A stretch of DNA of 64,000 nt from an uncultured Bacteroidales bacterium (GCA_905235855.1 CAJONE010000005.1:1550-65549); one strand, 5' to 3'. Shown: positions 2,113-56,302, counted from the first letter of the stretch. Notes: generated from the sequence alone by a model not told the origin. A program made the numbers and translations.

Positions 2113-3200
2113 AAATACTCCTTTTGGGTGCCACGGGTCTGCTGGGTAACAATGTTCTCGAAACACTGCTTTTGGGCGGACATGATGTTACAGTGATAGT
2201 CCGTAACCCCGACGCTGTTGTCGGTGTCAGTGTCCCCGATGATGCACAGCAAAGACTTCGCGCTTCCAGTGGATTGCCGGAGGTTTCTTTCTCGTCGGGT
2301 GGTTCAGAAGTAAGAATCATCAAAGGTCTTTTGACAGATGCCCGTATAATGCGGCATGCGGCCAGGGGGTGCAATGCTTTGGTCAACTGTGCCGGCGACA
2401 CCGACATGTCGCACCGTCGTCAGGAAGATTATTATCCCGTAAATCGTGACTTGTGTACCACAATATTGGAAGTGGCCCAAACCGAGAAAATAGAAACCAT
2501 AGTCCATGTCAGTACGGTCAACACTATAGGCCACGGTTCTGAGGCGTTGCTGTCCGATGAAAATGTTGCAATGCAGCCGCCTTTTACGGACTCGTGGTAT
2601 GCGTTGAGCAAGCTTGCCGGCGAGCGAATCCTGCTCAATGGGAATTTTGAAAATCGAAGGAGTGCAAATCTCTCTCAAGTCAAACCCAGAGTAGTCATTG
2701 TTAACCCTGGCTACATCATAGGAAAATACGATCAAAAGCCATCTTCTGGCAAACTGCTCATCGCGGGATGGCGTAAAAGGCTTATGATAGTGCCACCGGG
2801 CGGGAAGAGTTTTGTCGGTGCCCATACGGTGGCCATGGCAATAGAAGCTGCTTTGACCAAAGGGCGAAACGGTGAAAAATATATTGTCACGGACGAGGAT
2901 ATGACCTTTTGTCAGTTCTTCCAGTCTGCGGCCCAAGCAGGCGGGTATAAACAGCATATAATCGTTTTGCCCAGATTTGTGTGCCGACTCGCGGGCGTGA
3001 TAGGCGATGCGCTTGCATGGATCGGGATAGGAGTCTCCTTTACGAGCAGGAATGTCAGGCAGTTGATGGTTTTCGAACACTATTCAAACCAAAAGATGGT
3101 GGAGGAACTTGCTATAGAGCCGTCACCCATATATGAAGCTATAAAGGATTTCCTGAAATACAAACAGCTGTATAGGCAACATATTCGCAAAAGTTTGTAA
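2109..3200 (+). CDS. NAD(P)-dependent epimerase/dehydratase (extended SDR) family protein
   Basis: N-terminal Rossmann motif MKILLLGATGLLGNNV and a YALSK-type catalytic Y-x-x-x-K (WYALSKLAGE). Confidence 0.75.
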   Translation: MKILLLGATGLLGNNVLETLLLGGHDVTVIVRNPDAVVGVSVPDDAQQRLRASSGLPEVSFSSGGSEVRIIKGLLTDARIMRHAARGCNALVNCAGDTDMSHRRQEDYYPVNRDLCTTILEVAQTEKIETIVHVSTVNTIGHGSEALLSDENVAMQPPFTDSWYALSKLAGERILLNGNFENRRSANLSQVKPRVVIVNPGYIIGKYDQKPSSGKLLIAGWRKRLMIVPPGGKSFVGAHTVAMAIEAALTKGRNGEKYIVTDEDMTFCQFFQSAAQAGGYKQHIIVLPRFVCRLAGVIGDALAWIGIGVSFTSRNVRQLMVFEHYSNQKMVEELAIEPSPIYEAIKDFLKYKQLYRQHIRKSL

Positions 3201-46819: not shown

Positions 46820-46854
46820 GTGGTTTAGGTCCGTGCCAGGTCGGTTACCTGGGA

Positions 46855-49800
46855 TCACCTGCAAACACCTGTGTTTAGGCGTAGATATTGCAGAGTCTGA
46901 AGAAAAAGAAACCGATATTCCTGACTCCACGGAGGGACTTGCGGAATGATTTTATTTTTGAGTTGAACTGTTCGGCGGATGCGTTGGTGGAGCGTTGGTT
47001 GTAGTAGTTGAACCAGCGTCGTCCGCTCGGCCATGCCCATGCCTCCGCGCCGGAACTGGTCCTCTATGCTCTCGTCCGTCTGCGCATCCTCTGTCGCATC
47101 TTCTTCGCCGTCGCGGAAACGGATGTCGTCGTTGGCAGGGTCGAATGTTCCGACGTTCTCGGTCGCGCTCTTTATCTGGTTGGGCGACATCGGTATGTAG
47201 TCGGTTGATAGCGGTGGTTCGCTGCCGTCTCTCAACTCTCCCGCGTAGCCGCCCTCGCGTATGTTACGCACAATCACCCCGTCGTAGCCGTTCTTTGCGG
47301 CGTTGTGCACCTCTGCCTCCATCTCCAGTGTGCCTGCATCTCCCCACGTCTTGCCGCCGAAGTCAATCACCAGAGGGTTGCGCATGTTCACATAGCATTC
47401 GTACACGTCCGGCACACGCTCCATGCCGATGCTCACAATCTCGTCTATTGGCGTTTCAATCCCGACATATTCCAGTATGTCGCCGAGTATTTCCCTGTCA
47501 AGGTGGTCTCCTGCTTCGAGTTTTTCTCTTATCACATCGGCAAAATTCCCCCAGCCGTACAGTTCATCAACTTCATAGTCTCCGTCTGTTGCAAACTCTG
47601 CCAACTGCCTTGCTGAAATGTCGTCAATTGCCACCTTTTGCCCGTTTACTTGCAGTATGCAATCAGCTTCGCGTTTGAACATGTCTGCGGTGCTGCGGTC
47701 GTTGCTGAAAAACGACGGCGTGTTGAATATTCGTATCTGCTCGCCACTCCTGCTGCCGTGGTACACCACCTGCGGCTCGCCGTTCTCGTCCACCACCTTT
47801 GATGAATTGGTTTTTGCCGACAGAATATCTTTTAGTATCTTTGCAACATCTCCAAGATGGGAGCCGGTATCAATCCCGGTCTTGAACTCCTCGTCTTGGA
47901 GTTCTTTTTGAAGCGCAACCTCATGCAGATAGAAACGGTGTGTACCGTCCGAATGTGTGACCTCGTTGGCGACAACAATACAGATATGGTTCTCCTCACC
48001 GATTTTCACGGGTGCTGCAAAAGTAACCGAGCCGTAGCCTCTGCCCTTCCAGTTTTCCTGTCGGTCTATTATACGCCCGCCCGATATGATTTCGGGTACT
48101 GCGGCAAATGCAGCAGCCTTTGTGCGTCCGAGTCCATGCGAGATACTGTCCTTGACGCTCCTTTCGTCAAGAAGTATTGTTCCGACACCAGCTCTTTCCA
48201 CTCTCCCGGCATACTTGGTGTCATAATATTCGGCGACACGCTTTGTTATGGGCATATCGTCTTTTTCAAATTCGTTCCCGGTCAGGCGCGCTACCACGTC
48301 GTCACCAAGCAGATAGGCTGCAATTGCCGCTTTCTCCCAATCGCCAAACATCGTCTTGAAAGCCTGTGTCCGTACCTGCTTCCACTGGCGGTCGTCCAGC
48401 TTGCTCGGTTTACCGTTGGGTGCTTTCTTCCATGTGCCGTCGGCTTTGGCTTTGCGCTCTATCTCCATCTCCTCGGCCCGAATGTCGGCCTGCCGTTCCG
48501 CCCGCGTCTTTCCGTCGCGTAGCGTTATGTCGTCCTCTGCTGCCATTCCCTCTCTCTGCTTCTCCACCTTCCAGTCTCTGCCGTAAGGTGCCTTGTCCGC
48601 ATACTCTCCCACGCCCAGCTCGGCCTGCATCGCTATGTCCTGCGCCTGTCTCACATATCCCCAGTTGCCCTCGGGCTCTGTCAGGTTCTTCCAGCTCCGC
48701 CACAGCACAAACCTCAACTCGTTCTCCGTGATGGTGTGGTTGCCGATCCAGTCGCCCATACCTATCTTCTTCACCATCCTTATGAACCAGTCTTTCACCA
48801 TCCTCCACCAGCTCTCATACTGTGGGTGTTCGAAGTTCTGCGTCTCCGCCATTTTCGCCATATACTCCTCTGTGGCGGTGCGGACGTTCCAGTTGTATTT
48901 CTTCGAAAGCGACGCTATCTCTCTCCTTATATCCTCCGTGCTGTGGGCATACACGTCGTCCAGGAACGTGTCGAAGTTCTCTCCAAACAACTCCCTCAGT
49001 CCGTGGTGTGCCACCCCTTCGTGGAGTATAGTATGGAACACATCGTCCATCCCCGTGTTGTTGTACATGATGACGTATATCTTCCCCGTCTTGGTGTCGT
49101 ACCACCCTTTGGCTCTCTTCTGGCGGTCGGTCAGGTTCATGCCTTCCAGCTCGTCGATGTCCAGCACCACGTTTACTCGGTCGCCCAGGTTCAGCTTCTC
49201 GGCAAACCTCTCGGCCGTCTTCTTCCGCTGGTTCCACACTCTCTCTATGTGGCGGTCGAACTGCGCCTTCGTATACCCTGCCTTCTTCGCCCTCTTCAAC
49301 GCCTCGTCGTATGGCGTGTAAGTCACCTGCGGCCCTTCGCCTATCCTCGTCACTACCGAAATATCGTTCTCGCTCTCGGCCTCTTGTGAATTATTTTTTG
49401 CAGTTTCGGGATAATTCAGTAATTTTGCAGCTGAAAACGAGTTGTTGCCTGAGCGGGGGAGTTCGCCATTATTGTCGTCTCCATGTGTCCCTTCCAACAA
49501 CTCGATTTCTGTTATTTCATAGCTGTAAGCTTTCGATTTTTCGTTTTCACTATTGTAGCGCTTTACCGTTGTTTTGACACGGTAGAGTTGGCCATCAATG
49601 TCTATTCCACCATACAAGCGTACAACGTCTTTCAAGTGTCTGTCGCCTTTTTTGTCATCATGAACCTCTCCAACAATGGAGTTTTCTATGATACTCGGCA
49701 TAACTTTCAGAGCAGAAAGGTGAACATCTTTGTTGTCGCTCTTACTGACAGCCTTTTCGCTTAGGTATTTGTCAACGGCTGTGCTGCTGATATTGACGTT

Positions 49801-52800
49801 TCCTATTTCTGGGTTCTCATATTCTCCGACAATGTTTTGCTTTGCCCACTTTCGCGCCTCCTTGAAGTCCTTGAAACCATGTTCCTTCTCCGCTCCAACA
49901 ATATTGACAGTTCTATTGTCATTCTCATCACCTCCCACCTTCTGGAACATTATCCCCTCTTTCCCTCTCACCGTCTCCAGCGTCACGTTCTTTCTGCTCT
50001 CCTCGTTGCCGTGCTCGTAGCTCACCACAGTAAGCCCTGCATCCTCCAGCGCCTGCCGCACATCCTCGCTCACGTTGTCCGGCACCACCGCCACCTCGAA
50101 CTCGTCCAGCATTACGGGACGTTTGAACTTCGTCTCGAAATACTTGGCCGGCAATGTCTTCACGTCTTCTATGAAGTTCATAAGTTGCGATGCCAGATCG
50201 CTGTCTTTGGCGATGTCGTAGCCGTACTCGCTGTTAAGGTATGCTATCGGGTCTCTCTTGGTCAACGCCTCCTGCAGTCTGCTCTCAGCGATGTCGTTGT
50301 TGATAAACGGGTTGCTGTCTATCTTCTTCATATCCGAAATCTGTCCCACGATGTCAAACAGCTCGTTGCTCAGTTCTTCGGTTCTCTGCTCCATCTGGCT
50401 CTTGCCGTCGCCGTCCTCTATGACACCTCTGTTCAGCAACTCTTTGTGTTTCCTAATGTCGCTCAGGCTTTTGAACCTCGGTAGCAGTATGGCTCTTGTC
50501 GGACCGAATCCTGTCTGGTCGTAGCTGTTCTGCTCTGCGTTTTTGTTCATGAGCTTGCTGGCGTTCTCCACCGTGTTCGGCACATACCTTCTGTTTCCGC
50601 TTGGTGTCCATCCTGCAAACAGCTTCTCGTCTATGTCCTCGTCGTTGAACAGCGTCTCTTTCCACTTGTAGTATTCTTCAGCCAGTCCTTCCTTGGCTAC
50701 CATATAGTCCGCATCGCTGTCCGTTCCGTACCAATCCACCTCTGGCTCATTGCGTCTCCGCTCGTCCATCTGCAGTCCGTGCAGGTAGTTGTCCGTGGCG
50801 TTGAAGTACATCCTGCCTTTCTCGTCAACGTACTTCGCACGCTTAGCGTCAATGAGCAACTGTTCGGCTTTCTTCCTCTTCTCCTCGTCGGCTATACCTG
50901 CGGTGGCTTTCTTCGCCTCGTTCTCTATGTCGCCCATTATGAGTTTTAGGAGCTCATCTTTCTGCTCCTGTGTCAGGTCGTCAAAAGAGACGTTCGAGAG
51001 GTTATCTGCTCCCGTAATCTTTCTTGCTGCTTCGTACTCCTCCGGTGTGCTGTCTATCCTCTTCATCTTCTTCTTCGGGTCATACCCTTTCTGCTTCAAG
51101 AATATGAACGCCAGGTTGTGTGTGTCGCCATCCACGAAACGCTCCAGCTGCTGCTTCAGATGTCTTTCCAGCTCTTTGTCTCCGTTCGCTGCCTCTTTCG
51201 CAATCTGATCGAAGTGTTTCTCTCCCTGCTTGGTCATCATCTTGGTGATGCTGGGATAAGTAGGAGTCCATGCGTCGCCTGCGTATGTGCCTGCATTCCG
51301 CCCTGTCCTGCTGTCTATCAGGCTTGCTTTCGGTATCAGGCTTATCTCGCCGTAGACATTCAGCGTGCCGTTCTTCGTGTCTATCACTGCCATGCTCGGG
51401 TTGGCGAACCCGCCCTGCTTCAATGCCTTCTTCAGCTTCTCCTCGCTTATGTTGTGTACGCCCATCAGCGTCTTCTCCTCCGTCGCTCTCGGGTTGTACC
51501 CTCTTGCCAGGTCGCCCATCACCATGTCGGCGAAGTCGTCGGCTGTCAGGTTTTCTACCCCCTCCACCTTGCCTGCGAAGAGGTCACGTGCCATGTTCCA
51601 GAACTTGCTCAGTATCTCTCTCAGCTTGTGGAACATCGTGGCCACCTTCGCCTTCTCGAATACATCGTGGGTCTTCGACATCTCCTCTCTCATGTCCGCC
51701 TCCAGACGTTCACGCCCTCGCTTGCCGCTGTAGTGGGCAAACACCTCATCCGTCAGCTCGTCCTCGTTCTTCAGCTCCGGGTAGCGTCCTCTCACGTACT
51801 CCCACAGCCGTCCGTCCTCCACGCCTTTCATCTCCTCGGTCAGCTGCGCCCATGCCGTCGGGTTGGCTTTCCGCAATCCCTGCGCCCACAGGTGCGTGTA
51901 CTCGTGTATCGGTGTGTCGGGTGTCGCCACTCGCGGGTCTATGTATATCTCGCCGTTCAAAGTGTACCCCAGCACCTCCCCGTCCTCCGTCTTGAAGAAC
52001 ATCGGCTGTCCTTCCATCACGCTCTCCTTCATCTCGGGTGTCACGTCCACGCTCCACATCGTGAGGCCGTTGTCGCCGATATTCGGCAACTCCACCTCCC
52101 CGGTTTTCACTCCCCACTTCTTGCCGTACTTGTCCATGAACCTCGGCAGTATCTGGTCGTAGAACCCTTTCATCCCCTCGCCTCCGATATGCATGCCCTC
52201 GCCTTCGATGGTTTCCCACTCGGTATTCATTATTTTCTCTGCAAGAGACTTGCCAAACACCTCTGAAACGTGTTTGCCATTGGCATTTTCCATAAGTCCA
52301 TTGGCTTGTGAAATAATGCCATCTTCCGAAATGTACATGGCAGACTGACCACGCTCTGGGAATTTTAGATTTACCATTTTCACATCTTTCCCATCCCGTT
52401 TTACTGTCTGTATGTCTATCTTCTCTACGGCTTTACTCAGGTCGTACCTCTCCGCCTGCTGCTCGCCCTTAGTCCAAGCCACCTTGTCGTAGCCGTTCTC
52501 GGCGGCATACCGCAGCATGCGCTTCATGCACACCTCGTGCCAGTTCTTGTCAAACGGCGCGTCGGGAACATCACCTGCATTTCTTCCATTCACTCGTTCC
52601 CACTCCATTTGTGCCTCTTCTGCATCATTGAGTGCTTTAACCAGTTTTTCGTGTTTGCGCCATTCGTCTTCGCTTCTTTCTAACGGGTGCTTGATACCTT
52701 TCTTTTCGAGTTCATCATTGTAATCCTGAAGTTCGTCCCAAGCATCTTGACTTGCTTTTATCAAACGTTGCAATTCCTTCGGACGATATCCCTTCTCTCT

Positions 52801-55800
52801 TCCCTCCTGATGCCTATTGCTCTGTATCTCGTCGATGACCAGTACGCGCTTGCCGTCCTTGTCCGTCGTCTCTCCGAACCTCACCCACGCCACGGCGCGG
52901 CCCTCGCCTGCGTCGCCGAAGTGTATCTCGTCGCTCTCTTTCCACGGCTCGATGGTCGGCACGGTCAAGGCTATCTCGCTCCTGTTCTCCAAACCCTCGG
53001 TGGTGTATTCCAGGCGAGTGGAGTTGATGTATCTGTAACCATCTATAGATTCAAGGTAGTCTTCAAAACCATCATTGATTTCTATTCTGCCGCCTGTTCC
53101 GTCTAAAGCCATATTGAAGTCGTCACCATAACGCTCTATCATCTCGTTCCATGCGCCCTCCCAGTTCCCGTCATGTTCCTTTATCAATTCATCGTATTCT
53201 TGTTGCAAGGCAGTTAGACCGCTCTCCGAATAATTCACCTCTTCAATCTGAAGGGCATTCTCACGGATATAGTCCAGCACCTCCTGCTTGGTGAGGCTCT
53301 TGCCTTTCTGCTCGTTGAGCCAGTCGCTTAGTCCCGTCCACTTGTCCTCGCCAGCTTTCAGTCCGCCGTTCTTGGTGAGCATGGCCTTCCACTGCTCCGC
53401 CGTGGCTTTCTCTTGCTTTATACCCTCCACGGCTCTCATCGCATTCGAATAGAACACAGGCTTCATCTCCGGCACATACTCGCCACCCTCGGCCTTGTGG
53501 AATCGTATCTTGTCGACTATCTTGAGGTTGTTCTCGTCGAAGACGACGTAGTTCTTCGCCCCGTCGCTCCGGCCACCGCTCATATACTCCGCAGGGTACT
53601 TGATGCCCACGTAGCCCATCGAGTGCAGGAACTCCGAAGCAGCCTTGTCGCTGCCGGTTATAGCGGTAATGATGTTGTGGTAGACAGCACCGCCCTGTCT
53701 GTTGGTAGCCTCCCCAGCGTTCAGGTACTCTCTGTCGAGCCATTTGTCTATACTCACCTCGTCCGACTTCGGATACCTCTCCTTGGCTATCGGCATTAAG
53801 CGCTCTTTTATCTCATTCCACCTCTCCGTTTCAGGCAGGTTGGTGTAGTCAAAGTAGTTGCTCCCGTCGTCGTCGGGTATCTCCACCGTGTAGAGGATTT
53901 TGTCATAATCATTCTCATTAAAACGTCTTTTGTCTTCTTCCCTAAGTTTTGTTAGTTTCTCCTCTGCCTTTTCGTAATTCTCTTTTGCTTGTTCTTTATC
54001 TTCTTCGTTGGCGTGTTCGTAATCCCATAAAGCATTTAATAAGTCTTTATTTGCGGCTGTGATTTTTTTAGATAGTTGTCCTCTACTTGTGCTCTCCGCA
54101 TACATCCTCCCAATCCCTTCCACCTCCGTAACGTAGGTGCCATATCCGTAAGCCTGCGCCCCTTCGCCCTCGCCCATGTGCGAGTGGTCGAATGCCTCAA
54201 AGTCAGCACCGCTGCCGTGGTAGGCTCGCATCTCGCGCAAATTGCTCTGCGGCAGGTCGTGTTCCACTGGGAAATAGCTGTAATTCCCTCCCACGTCCTT
54301 GGTGTGCAGCTTGCAGTCCGCATCTATCACGCTGATGTTTCCGGCTGCGTCGCGCACGATGTTGCTTTTCTGCAGGTCGGCCACTATTATCTCGCCGTTG
54401 CTGAAGGCTGAGTTCTCCTTGTTTATGGGCTTGAATCCAAGTCCGGCCATGTACTCCACGCGCTCCTGCTCGGTCAAAGGTTTGCTGTTGGAAAAATTGA
54501 CAATGGGCTGTTCCAGCACACGGACAAAACCTTTTCCAAAGTCTCCATACCCAACTATCTTATATGCAGAGTTGGGAAACACATAGTTGAACAGGGGAAT
54601 GTTGTCAAGGTCGGGTCTGAAACGCTTGCCTTCGGGCTTGCCGTGCGAGAGTTTTATGACGTGCGTACCGTCCTTGGCGGCGTACACGTCGCTGTCTGTG
54701 CCGCTGCCGATAGGTTCTGTGTTGTCGGTGAAATCTGTGAGGTCGGTGTGCCAGTTGCCTGTAGCTTTAGCCCACCGCTCTAACAGCTCTTTCTTCTTTG
54801 CCTCGATAGCTCTTCTTCCTGACGGACGAGTTCGTTCATTCGGTCTGACTGTGCTTTCAGAAACTCGTGTGAAAAGTGCATCGAGAGCGTTCTCTCGCGC
54901 TCTTTCATACATTCTTCGTTCCACTTCCTGTGGAAGTCGTTCAGATAGCCGTCGTCCGTACTTGTTGTCTGGTGTGACATCATCTATGAAGTCTCTAATT
55001 TCTTGCAAAGATACATCATTATATTCACCTGACAAAATAATATTGTACACCTCTTTTGCATCCTCTCTCCGTTTCTCTTCTCTGGCGAGGCGTTTTCTGC
55101 GTGCTTCAGCAACGCTTTTCCCTGTCACAAAAGCCGTGGCTTCGTCTATTACCCTGTTCTGCTCTTCCCTTTCTTTGCGCCTCTCGCTCATCTCGCCCCC
55201 GCTCATCAGTTTCACATTCTCTCTGTACTTGTCCAGCATCTCCTGGCCTTTCTTCGTCACGTAGTGCGTCGGCACGCCCGTGGCTTTCAGCACCTCCACC
55301 ACGCCTTTCGTCAGCTCCTTCTGCTCCTTCGTCGGCTTCGCCGTTTCTCCCTCCGACTTCTGACTCCGCACGTTGGCTCCATACAGGCCCTCTCCCAATC
55401 TCCGCAAGTCGTCTCGGCTCTTCAAACCTTCGCTCTCGTACCACTGTCGCAACGTCTCGTCGGGCACAACACCAGACAGCGACACCAGGTATTCGTCAAC
55501 CTGATGCCCTGCGTTCTTCTTGTAGTTGCCATTGTAGGCAAAGTCCTCGAAGGCTCCGCTGCCCTCGTTCTCTTTCAACCCTTCGACGATACGGCGCACG
55601 TTGGCTCCGATTTCCTCCGGGGTCATCGTCTCGCTGACGGGCGTAAGGCCGAAAGGTTTTTCATAGCCTGTGCCCTCGGCAAGGATACGCTGCTTGCGCT
55701 CCTCCTGGAGTCTTTGCTCCCGGCTCTCCGCTACTGCTCCTCTTCGGTCTCCGTCGGCTTCGTTTCCTCGCTGTCCTCCATCACCTTCTTGTGTGCCTTG

Positions 55801-56193
55801 AACAGCAGATCGAGTTTCCGCGCTTTCAGGTCTTGTTTCGGTTGCGACTGCTGCTCCGCTGGCTGCTTCGGTGTTGTCTGATTGTCCATTTCTTTTCTTT
55901 TTATAATATTCTACTATGTCTTTCTTTATATCCTCTTTCGTCCTCGGCTCGAACAAGGCAAGTCCTCCACTGTTCGCTTCAGCCTCCGCACTCTTGTTAT
56001 ATAACGTCAACACATCTCTAAAATTATCCACTCCGCTGCTCATCTCGTCGGCCATCAGCACCACAGCCGGCTCAAACCTGTCTTCTACCAGCCCTTCTAT
56101 CAGGTTGCCCTGTCGCTTGAACTCATCCCATTTCATCTTGCTCCGTCTGGCTTCGTACAGCAGGTCTATCGTCGTGTTTATCTCTTCTGTCAA
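46855..56193 (-). CDS. Giant (3112 codon) polyvalent-type multi-enzyme protein
   Basis: Single open frame. By-eye modules are a kinase-like domain (aa ~490-632), a YHGS ART-like module (aa ~655-900), HEYTH zincin (aa 1430-1434), HEGVAHH zincin (aa 2391-2397), two related ~135 aa modules (aa ~2095-2235 and ~2630-2765) and a second YHGS/PNQIKS ART-like module (aa ~2795-3030). TTG start. The last ~60 codons are an out-of-frame transposase remnant. Confidence 0.8.
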   Translation of the reverse strand: MTEEINTTIDLLYEARRSKMKWDEFKRQGNLIEGLVEDRFEPAVVLMADEMSSGVDNFRDVLTLYNKSAEAEANSGGLALFEPRTKEDIKKDIVEYYKKKRNGQSDNTEAASGAAVATETRPESAETRSAVQGTQEGDGGQRGNEADGDRRGAVAESREQRLQEERKQRILAEGTGYEKPFGLTPVSETMTPEEIGANVRRIVEGLKENEGSGAFEDFAYNGNYKKNAGHQVDEYLVSLSGVVPDETLRQWYESEGLKSRDDLRRLGEGLYGANVRSQKSEGETAKPTKEQKELTKGVVEVLKATGVPTHYVTKKGQEMLDKYRENVKLMSGGEMSERRKEREEQNRVIDEATAFVTGKSVAEARRKRLAREEKRREDAKEVYNIILSGEYNDVSLQEIRDFIDDVTPDNKYGRRLSERLPQEVERRMYERARENALDALFTRVSESTVRPNERTRPSGRRAIEAKKKELLERWAKATGNWHTDLTDFTDNTEPIGSGTDSDVYAAKDGTHVIKLSHGKPEGKRFRPDLDNIPLFNYVFPNSAYKIVGYGDFGKGFVRVLEQPIVNFSNSKPLTEQERVEYMAGLGFKPINKENSAFSNGEIIVADLQKSNIVRDAAGNISVIDADCKLHTKDVGGNYSYFPVEHDLPQSNLREMRAYHGSGADFEAFDHSHMGEGEGAQAYGYGTYVTEVEGIGRMYAESTSRGQLSKKITAANKDLLNALWDYEHANEEDKEQAKENYEKAEEKLTKLREEDKRRFNENDYDKILYTVEIPDDDGSNYFDYTNLPETERWNEIKERLMPIAKERYPKSDEVSIDKWLDREYLNAGEATNRQGGAVYHNIITAITGSDKAASEFLHSMGYVGIKYPAEYMSGGRSDGAKNYVVFDENNLKIVDKIRFHKAEGGEYVPEMKPVFYSNAMRAVEGIKQEKATAEQWKAMLTKNGGLKAGEDKWTGLSDWLNEQKGKSLTKQEVLDYIRENALQIEEVNYSESGLTALQQEYDELIKEHDGNWEGAWNEMIERYGDDFNMALDGTGGRIEINDGFEDYLESIDGYRYINSTRLEYTTEGLENRSEIALTVPTIEPWKESDEIHFGDAGEGRAVAWVRFGETTDKDGKRVLVIDEIQSNRHQEGREKGYRPKELQRLIKASQDAWDELQDYNDELEKKGIKHPLERSEDEWRKHEKLVKALNDAEEAQMEWERVNGRNAGDVPDAPFDKNWHEVCMKRMLRYAAENGYDKVAWTKGEQQAERYDLSKAVEKIDIQTVKRDGKDVKMVNLKFPERGQSAMYISEDGIISQANGLMENANGKHVSEVFGKSLAEKIMNTEWETIEGEGMHIGGEGMKGFYDQILPRFMDKYGKKWGVKTGEVELPNIGDNGLTMWSVDVTPEMKESVMEGQPMFFKTEDGEVLGYTLNGEIYIDPRVATPDTPIHEYTHLWAQGLRKANPTAWAQLTEEMKGVEDGRLWEYVRGRYPELKNEDELTDEVFAHYSGKRGRERLEADMREEMSKTHDVFEKAKVATMFHKLREILSKFWNMARDLFAGKVEGVENLTADDFADMVMGDLARGYNPRATEEKTLMGVHNISEEKLKKALKQGGFANPSMAVIDTKNGTLNVYGEISLIPKASLIDSRTGRNAGTYAGDAWTPTYPSITKMMTKQGEKHFDQIAKEAANGDKELERHLKQQLERFVDGDTHNLAFIFLKQKGYDPKKKMKRIDSTPEEYEAARKITGADNLSNVSFDDLTQEQKDELLKLIMGDIENEAKKATAGIADEEKRKKAEQLLIDAKRAKYVDEKGRMYFNATDNYLHGLQMDERRRNEPEVDWYGTDSDADYMVAKEGLAEEYYKWKETLFNDEDIDEKLFAGWTPSGNRRYVPNTVENASKLMNKNAEQNSYDQTGFGPTRAILLPRFKSLSDIRKHKELLNRGVIEDGDGKSQMEQRTEELSNELFDIVGQISDMKKIDSNPFINNDIAESRLQEALTKRDPIAYLNSEYGYDIAKDSDLASQLMNFIEDVKTLPAKYFETKFKRPVMLDEFEVAVVPDNVSEDVRQALEDAGLTVVSYEHGNEESRKNVTLETVRGKEGIMFQKVGGDENDNRTVNIVGAEKEHGFKDFKEARKWAKQNIVGEYENPEIGNVNISSTAVDKYLSEKAVSKSDNKDVHLSALKVMPSIIENSIVGEVHDDKKGDRHLKDVVRLYGGIDIDGQLYRVKTTVKRYNSENEKSKAYSYEITEIELLEGTHGDDNNGELPRSGNNSFSAAKLLNYPETAKNNSQEAESENDISVVTRIGEGPQVTYTPYDEALKRAKKAGYTKAQFDRHIERVWNQRKKTAERFAEKLNLGDRVNVVLDIDELEGMNLTDRQKRAKGWYDTKTGKIYVIMYNNTGMDDVFHTILHEGVAHHGLRELFGENFDTFLDDVYAHSTEDIRREIASLSKKYNWNVRTATEEYMAKMAETQNFEHPQYESWWRMVKDWFIRMVKKIGMGDWIGNHTITENELRFVLWRSWKNLTEPEGNWGYVRQAQDIAMQAELGVGEYADKAPYGRDWKVEKQREGMAAEDDITLRDGKTRAERQADIRAEEMEIERKAKADGTWKKAPNGKPSKLDDRQWKQVRTQAFKTMFGDWEKAAIAAYLLGDDVVARLTGNEFEKDDMPITKRVAEYYDTKYAGRVERAGVGTILLDERSVKDSISHGLGRTKAAAFAAVPEIISGGRIIDRQENWKGRGYGSVTFAAPVKIGEENHICIVVANEVTHSDGTHRFYLHEVALQKELQDEEFKTGIDTGSHLGDVAKILKDILSAKTNSSKVVDENGEPQVVYHGSRSGEQIRIFNTPSFFSNDRSTADMFKREADCILQVNGQKVAIDDISARQLAEFATDGDYEVDELYGWGNFADVIREKLEAGDHLDREILGDILEYVGIETPIDEIVSIGMERVPDVYECYVNMRNPLVIDFGGKTWGDAGTLEMEAEVHNAAKNGYDGVIVRNIREGGYAGELRDGSEPPLSTDYIPMSPNQIKSATENVGTFDPANDDIRFRDGEEDATEDAQTDESIEDQFRRGGMGMAERTTLVQLLQPTLHQRIRRTVQLKNKIIPQVPPWSQEYRFLFLQTLQYLRLNTGVCR
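46875..47021 (-). pseudogene. 3'-terminal remnant of an ISL3-like transposase gene
   Basis: The minus-strand frame +1 relative to the giant ORF translates to RRWFNYYNQRSTNASAEQFNSKIKSFRKSLRGVRNIGFFFFRLCNIYA*. This fits the TNxxxExxNxKIKxxxR...G(V/F)...F..R(L/I) C-terminal signature of ISL3-family transposases. That frame is closed by a stop ~11 codons upstream of RRWF. Confidence 0.55.
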
Positions 56194-56302
56194 CGCATAG
56201 TCTCCAAGCCTGCGGTTCTCTGCTATCTGCGGACATCATGTTTTGTCGTTAAGGCAATAAAACACGAGAGAATACGTTGTTTAAACAAACCGTTGCAACA
56301 AT

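Follow-up and report, generated by a model that had tools for sequence, protein, structure and literature searches.

Protein kinases have a section of their own in the description of polyvalent proteins by Iyer, Burroughs, Anand, de Souza and Aravind (2017, J Bacteriol 199:e00245-17, PMC5512222), where they form a monophyletic group of the Ser/Thr/Tyr superfamily in which the whole C-terminal subdomain has been lost and the active-site residues are intact. Their hosts are polyvalent proteins of Bacteroidetes and Verrucomicrobia (pro)phages, with stand-alone versions mentioned for Bacteroidetes, and the retained core was judged nearer to protein kinases. In the same paper, analogies are drawn with T4 Alt and with T7 gp0.7, the latter serving as a functional analogue, a kinase encoded by a phage and believed to target host proteins early. 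The domain is held in Pfam as Kinase-PolyVal (PF18762), and a study of the Legionella kinome (PMC9758233) lists it within Pfam's PKinase clan. An earlier note on the DNA analysed here had taken a kinase not to be among the commonly listed modules of polyvalent proteins; since Iyer et al. (2017) describe exactly such a kinase, and PF18762 represents it in Pfam, that premise was wrong. The DNA in question, hereafter the window, is a stretch of 64,000 nt from an uncultured Bacteroidales bacterium (GCA_905235855.1 CAJONE010000005.1:1550-65549), and we read its kinase-like region, with a probability of about 0.88, as a minimal Kinase-PolyVal enzyme, that is, a phage polyvalent module that is carried here by a relic gene.

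The domain lies within one giant ORF:

46855 to 56193, minus strand: giant host ORF of 3112 codons, a polyvalent-protein gene fragment (ORF calling, translation, Pfam)
54301 to 54801, minus strand: Kinase-PolyVal domain, aa 465-631 (Pfam PF18762, E 3.8e-38; AlphaFold2 pLDDT 83.5, pTM 0.75)

Together with Kinase-PolyVal, Pfam recognizes PBECR5 (residues 1572-1779), LPD3 (2111-2217) and ART-PolyVal (best stretch 2929-3017) in this ORF, a combination that makes it a typical polyvalent protein and that corresponds to the published setting of the family, namely giant polyvalent proteins of Bacteroidetes (pro)phages with ART-PolyVal, LPD3 and PBECR modules. An ART-like module (YHGSGADF), distinct from the kinase, begins at about aa 655. 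An NCBIfam search assigned no family to the giant protein, which was already labelled PF18762 in the precomputed database (as P0002). Translation puts residues 490-632 exactly at 54298-54726, the region singled out in the earlier note, and each of the motifs named there is found at the residues given for it: IGSGTDSDVY at 495-504, HVIKL with K514, ADLQKSNIVRD with D606 and N611, and VIDAD with D624 and D626. The location of the domain was thus correct, whereas its start had been placed some 25 residues downstream of the true one, since the family domain begins at aa 465. A larger conserved block travels with the kinase (aa 252-665, about 54199-55440, minus strand), comprising about 200 aa upstream, the kinase itself and the start of the ART-like module; it is co-linear, at 65% identity, in the relatives P0003 and P0005, which are otherwise mosaic and carry the block at very different distances from the N-terminus.

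The segment aa 465-631 matches PF18762 with 131.4 bits (E 3.8e-38) over profile positions 2-160 of 160, the curated cut-off of the family being 27 bits. When excised, the domain scores 137.5 bits against the same profile and has no second Pfam family at E<=10, and so no PF00069, APH, RIO1 or Kdo match. The entry bears the title 'Serine/Threonine/Tyrosine Kinase found in polyvalent proteins'. Judged by its sequence, the segment is an intact copy of Kinase-PolyVal and an ordinary, already catalogued member of that family. An exhaustive HMMER search with a 197-aa domain query returned 764 family clusters (50% identity) at E<=1e-3 and 92 at E<=1e-30, and 447 giant proteins carrying Kinase-PolyVal were found by a word-indexed search; a sequence search of the PDB with the family profile gave no relative, its best match (E 0.4) being an unrelated EAL protein. 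The residues on which a kinase assignment depends are located as follows:

54682 to 54711, minus strand: Gly-rich ATP loop IGSGTDSDVY, aa 495-504 (G498 near-invariant; on GxGxxG of Pkinase by hhalign)
54652 to 54654, minus strand: K514, the beta3 ATP-anchoring lysine (244/244; on the invariant Lys of Pkinase by hhalign; model strand 511-516)
54508 to 54510, minus strand: Q562, the hinge Gln in the last N-lobe strand (244/244; model strand 556-563; named by Iyer et al. 2017)
54361 to 54378, minus strand: catalytic loop D606-L-Q-K-S-N611, equivalent to HRDxKxxN and here VAD...N (on the catalytic-loop Asp and Asn of Pkinase by hhalign)
54316 to 54330, minus strand: VIDAD, aa 622-626, with D624 as the metal-binding Asp at the DFG position (240/244; on the DFG Asp of Pkinase by hhalign)

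Conservation was assessed on 244 domain sequences, consisting of the query and 243 homologues that are 20-80% identical to it. Column counts of this alignment are 244 for K514 and D606, 243 for N611 and 240 for D624, so that the four residues proposed as catalytic are kept in 240-244 of the 244 sequences; Q562 and G548 are likewise found in 244, G498 in 241, and W481, which sits in an N-terminal helix that belongs to the family domain, in 243. Position 500, directly before the strand 501-505, is acidic in all 244 sequences (182 Asp, 62 Glu), and we have equated it, by our own column assignment, with the Glu that Iyer et al. (2017) place N-terminal to strand 2. The window protein retains every invariant residue of the family and shares with it the loss of the C-terminal subdomain, the invariant Lys/Asp/Asn/Asp set and the Gln in the last N-lobe strand; in the domain itself there is no difference, position 500 being Asp here and Glu in the paper.

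The relation to Hanks-type kinases was addressed by aligning the family with a Pkinase (PF00069) alignment of 21 bacterial domains from Bacteroidota genomes. The two profiles match over 123 columns (hhalign probability 88.7%, E 2.6e-6), with EPIGSGTDSDVY falling on the GxGxxG loop, K514 on the invariant beta3 Lys, VAD (604-606) on HRD, N611 on the catalytic-loop Asn and D624 on the DFG Asp, which reproduces the roles that had been proposed for the four residues. The alphaC Glu aligns with D528, and the better conserved D530 lies two residues further. The match stops at DFG, leaving Pkinase template columns 144-255 unmatched. Thus, both families have an N-lobe and a core made of the catalytic loop and the Mg loop, but the window domain is without the activation segment, the APE motif and the subsequent C-lobe helices, has VAD for HRD and DAD (624-626) for DFG with the Asp residues alone kept, spans about 165 aa in its core as against about 260, and shows no PF00069 sequence match at E<=10. 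Between residues 577 and 606 this subgroup has no conserved His, the insert described by Iyer et al. (2017) being expected between a His and the catalytic Asp; KPINKENSAFSNGE (588-601) looks insert-like, yet hhalign places the segment, ungapped, on the end of the helix that precedes the catalytic loop.

These alignments bear on two sceptical readings of the motifs. According to the first, the domain would be a pseudokinase, or a purely structural spacer with vestigial motifs, as might be suggested by VAD in place of HRD, by DAD in place of DFG and by its position in what is, in this genome, a decaying gene. We regard this as very improbable, given that the Lys, Asp, Asn and Asp positions and the Gly-loop persist in 240-244 of 244 sequences, including homologues down to about 20% identity, and such constancy at the catalytic positions argues for selection on catalysis. 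According to the second, the motifs would be a chance resemblance within a long, low-complexity ORF, an idea whose probability is close to nil and which is refuted by the Pfam match (E 3.8e-38), by the alignment to Pkinase (E 2.6e-6) and by the same invariant columns in hundreds of homologues.

An AlphaFold2 model of the core, computed from a 46-sequence alignment built from related loci, has a mean pLDDT of 83.5 and a pTM of 0.75; a search for short stand-alone relatives intended to diversify that alignment returned mostly close relatives and many partial matches. The model has, in order, an N-terminal helix, beta2 (501-505), beta3 (511-516), a short alphaC (531-538), beta4 (545-551) and beta5 (556-563), which are followed by a helix (575-584), four short strands around D606, N611 and D624 and a low-confidence tail. 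After D624 there is one short strand (626-629), beyond which confidence falls, and the C-lobe helices are absent. When the model is compared with the PDB by Foldseek, the best 50 matches are all protein kinases (probability 0.77-1.0), among them CK2alpha, DAPK1, MEK1, BRI1, PLK4 and PKA, with weak scores (best E 4.5e-3, TM 0.32-0.40). Against BFVD, the best matches are phage polyvalent proteins (E 1.2e-9, TM 0.69); a 198-aa 'PolyVal Serine/Threonine/Tyrosine Kinase' is also found (E 1.2e-7), followed by viral Ser/Thr kinases that include a RIO-like phage kinase (weak, E 1.5e-2). The proposal of a protein-kinase-like domain finds agreement in the Pfam match, in the profile alignment with Pkinase and in PDB fold matches of which the best 50 are all to kinases. 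A bilobal kinase fold, as expected in the note, is strictly speaking not what the model shows, for the C-lobe with its helices is missing. Since the loss of this lobe is what sets the family apart, it does not speak against a kinase, and the predicted fold is that of a kinase core without the classical bilobal architecture.

The same reduction raises the question of what is phosphorylated. The domain could have the kinase fold without being a protein kinase, and serve chiefly as an ATPase or molecular switch in the manner of RIO and Bud32, or phosphorylate small molecules, lipids, sugars or nucleic-acid ends, as do enzymes of the APH, Kdo or WaaP type. RIO and Bud32 are trimmed kinase cores that have no classical activation loop and act largely as ATPases. 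The helices that form the peptide-binding groove of the C-lobe are absent from the window domain, a RIO-like phage kinase is among its weak BFVD matches, and the literature searched reports neither an assay nor a substrate for any Kinase-PolyVal member, which keeps this reading live; protein-kinase activity and the substrate are inferred. We nevertheless consider a substrate other than protein, or a mere ATPase, unlikely: the best 50 PDB matches are Hanks-type, with APH, choline-kinase and Kdo structures absent among those 50, the Pfam search to E<=10 found nothing of the APH, RIO1 or Kdo families, the Asp that serves as catalytic base is invariant, and the retained core was placed closer to protein kinases by Iyer et al. 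(2017). Membership of the RIO/Bud32 group itself was considered and rejected: there is no RIO1 Pfam match, and RIO kinases retain helices in the C-lobe and have an N-terminal helix specific to them.

For a protein kinase of the Kinase-PolyVal type, a region partly outside the Pfam model may be of importance:

54760 to 54945, minus strand: helical extension, aa 417-478, with an S-E-R-L-P... motif (R419 conservation; AlphaFold2 of a longer construct)

The PF18762 model starts at aa 465, leaving aa 417-464 outside it, and the roughly 60 residues before the core bear a semi-conserved motif, [SL]-E-R-[LIF]-[SP]-x-E-E...G...G-R, which is found in close and distant family members, stand-alone ones included; 34 of 51 distant homologues and all 41 of the close ones sampled share R419. 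When aa 395-650 are modelled, pTM rises to 0.86 (0.75 for the core alone) at a pLDDT of 85.5, and three helices appear at 422-431, 433-448 and 457-478. Both the semi-conserved motif and the higher pTM suggest that the functional unit is possibly larger than PF18762. Foldseek on this longer model again returned only protein kinases, over about 170 aligned columns, and did not reveal where the N-terminal helices dock. We suggest tentatively, and hold it to be rather less probable than its opposite, that the true folding unit exceeds the Pfam model and that the extension packs on the truncated kinase, partly replacing the lost C-lobe, in which case substrate docking, action as a pseudosubstrate or stabilisation of the catalytic loop may be among its roles.

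The phage setting of the family can be followed in homologous loci, which were found in Bacteroidales MAGs and in IMG/VR contigs. For instance, an intact homologue of 5302 aa on a 53-kb IMG/VR contig has its kinase at residues 2558-2724, 79% identical over the domain, and its gene adjoins that of the terminase large subunit, a neighbour that supports a phage context. A tblastn search with the domain gave no match in 50,697 GenBank phage records and 72,556 plasmids, and all known members of the close subgroup come from metagenomic Bacteroidales phages and prophages. The 2.25-Mb genome of the window has one Kinase-PolyVal copy. Two Pkinase (PF00069) matches elsewhere in this genome (G000:C75:2839-3366 and G000:C19:8399-8953, at about profile positions 11-196 of 263) are unrelated to the polyvalent one. 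Distribution in the genus is patchy, with the family present in 9 of 24 other genomes, often in short open frames of 226-302 aa. In four genomes of the same genus, Kinase-PolyVal occupies open frames of 249-293 aa (loci L056, L057, L058 and L060 in G017, G014, G024 and G008, respectively), which look like the stand-alone versions mentioned by Iyer et al. (2017).

Where the window departs from the published family is in its host gene, which has lost both ends and lies stranded within a chromosome:

56194 to 56238, minus strand: 5' breakpoint (in-frame homology to a longer relative up to the TGA at 56236-56238, then none)
46852 to 47011, no strand assigned: end of an ISL3-family insertion sequence, which supplies the final ~50 codons of the ORF (contig C25 of this genome has a 97% identical copy)

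The longer relative, P0145, is 97% identical and has 506 extra N-terminal residues that include a ddrB-like ParB domain. The in-frame codons that immediately follow the stop at 56236-56238 in the window are matched by '...IPQIAENRRLGD' of P0145. Homology ends at this point, so the 5' part of the gene is missing. At the other end, the copy on C25 overlaps the 3' end of a DDE_Tnp_ISL3 transposase gene, and its 97% identity to 46852-47011 marks the last ~50 codons, about 157 nt at the end of the ORF, as the end of an insertion sequence. The surroundings are chromosomal housekeeping genes, with a TonB receptor, an NMN transporter and thiamin pyrophosphokinase (TPK) on one flank and a VanZ-like gene, a Na/Ala symporter and DNA alkylation repair on the other. 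GC content is the same as in these surroundings, and the window contains T9SS sorting domains, which are typical of Bacteroidota. A search of 25 other genomes of the genus located the VanZ-like neighbour in 23; in the 11 relative loci examined, the TPK gene and the Na/Ala symporter were both absent within 1.5 kb, and with synteny not conserved an empty site could not be shown.

Read from these breakpoints, the giant ORF is a relic that has been cut at its 5' end, where it has neither a native start nor the ddrB-ParB head, and at its 3' end, where an ISL3 scar closes it. The truncation is probably recent, since the frame is still open for 9.3 kb; with this frame stop-free and every invariant residue kept, the relic is possibly very recent or still expressed, and expression could proceed from the TTG at 56193 or from the ATG at codon 20. 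No TAnnTTTG promoter box lies upstream of the ORF on the coding strand. A Bacteroidetes-type -7 box (TATCTTTG) is found at 55006-55013 (minus), on the coding strand inside the ORF and about 200 nt upstream of the kinase; it is probably there by chance, but could drive an internal transcript. The whole window contains 55 copies of TAnnTTTG, where shuffles lead one to expect 34.8 +/- 5.1, which is consistent with promoter usage in Bacteroidota. Given a gene cut at both ends and set among housekeeping genes, the kinase is probably no longer deployed here. The suggestion that, if active, it would add a phosphorylation activity to the other modules of the protein is therefore doubtful for this locus, where the gene is truncated at both ends.

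Read as a minimal Kinase-PolyVal enzyme, the window domain has retained its N-lobe with the Gly-loop, the beta3 Lys514, an acidic alphaC residue (D528 or D530) and the hinge Gln562, and, of its C-lobe, only the catalytic strands, in which Asp606 would act as base and Asn611 and Asp624 would hold Mg-ATP, while the activation segment and all subsequent C-lobe helices have been lost. The residues that bind ATP and Mg and provide the catalytic base in protein kinases are present, family-invariant and in the expected strands. Such an enzyme would phosphorylate host proteins on hydroxyl groups, using the gamma-phosphate of ATP, and, being without an activation loop, would be constitutively competent. 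By analogy with T7 gp0.7 and T4 Alt, the giant polyvalent protein may be packed in the virion and delivered with the DNA. T7 gp0.7 itself is an early gene product and not part of a virion-delivered polyprotein. The virion-packaged polyprotein might be processed by zincin modules, according to the model of Iyer et al. (2017), and in complete phage genes the kinase would act alongside the ART and nuclease modules. In the window, the kinase sequence has not yet decayed, though the kinase is probably undeployed.

As a discovery the domain counts for little, since the domain, its odd architecture and its polyvalent setting were published in 2017 and are in Pfam. What is of value are the corrections: the kinase call was right, the claim of an unlisted module was wrong, and the carrier gene is a stranded fragment, so that there is no new activity to ascribe to the organism. 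The point that reaches across the family is how a kinase without a C-lobe chooses its substrate, and the packing of the upstream extension on the truncated core, if true, would account for how such a kinase can work.
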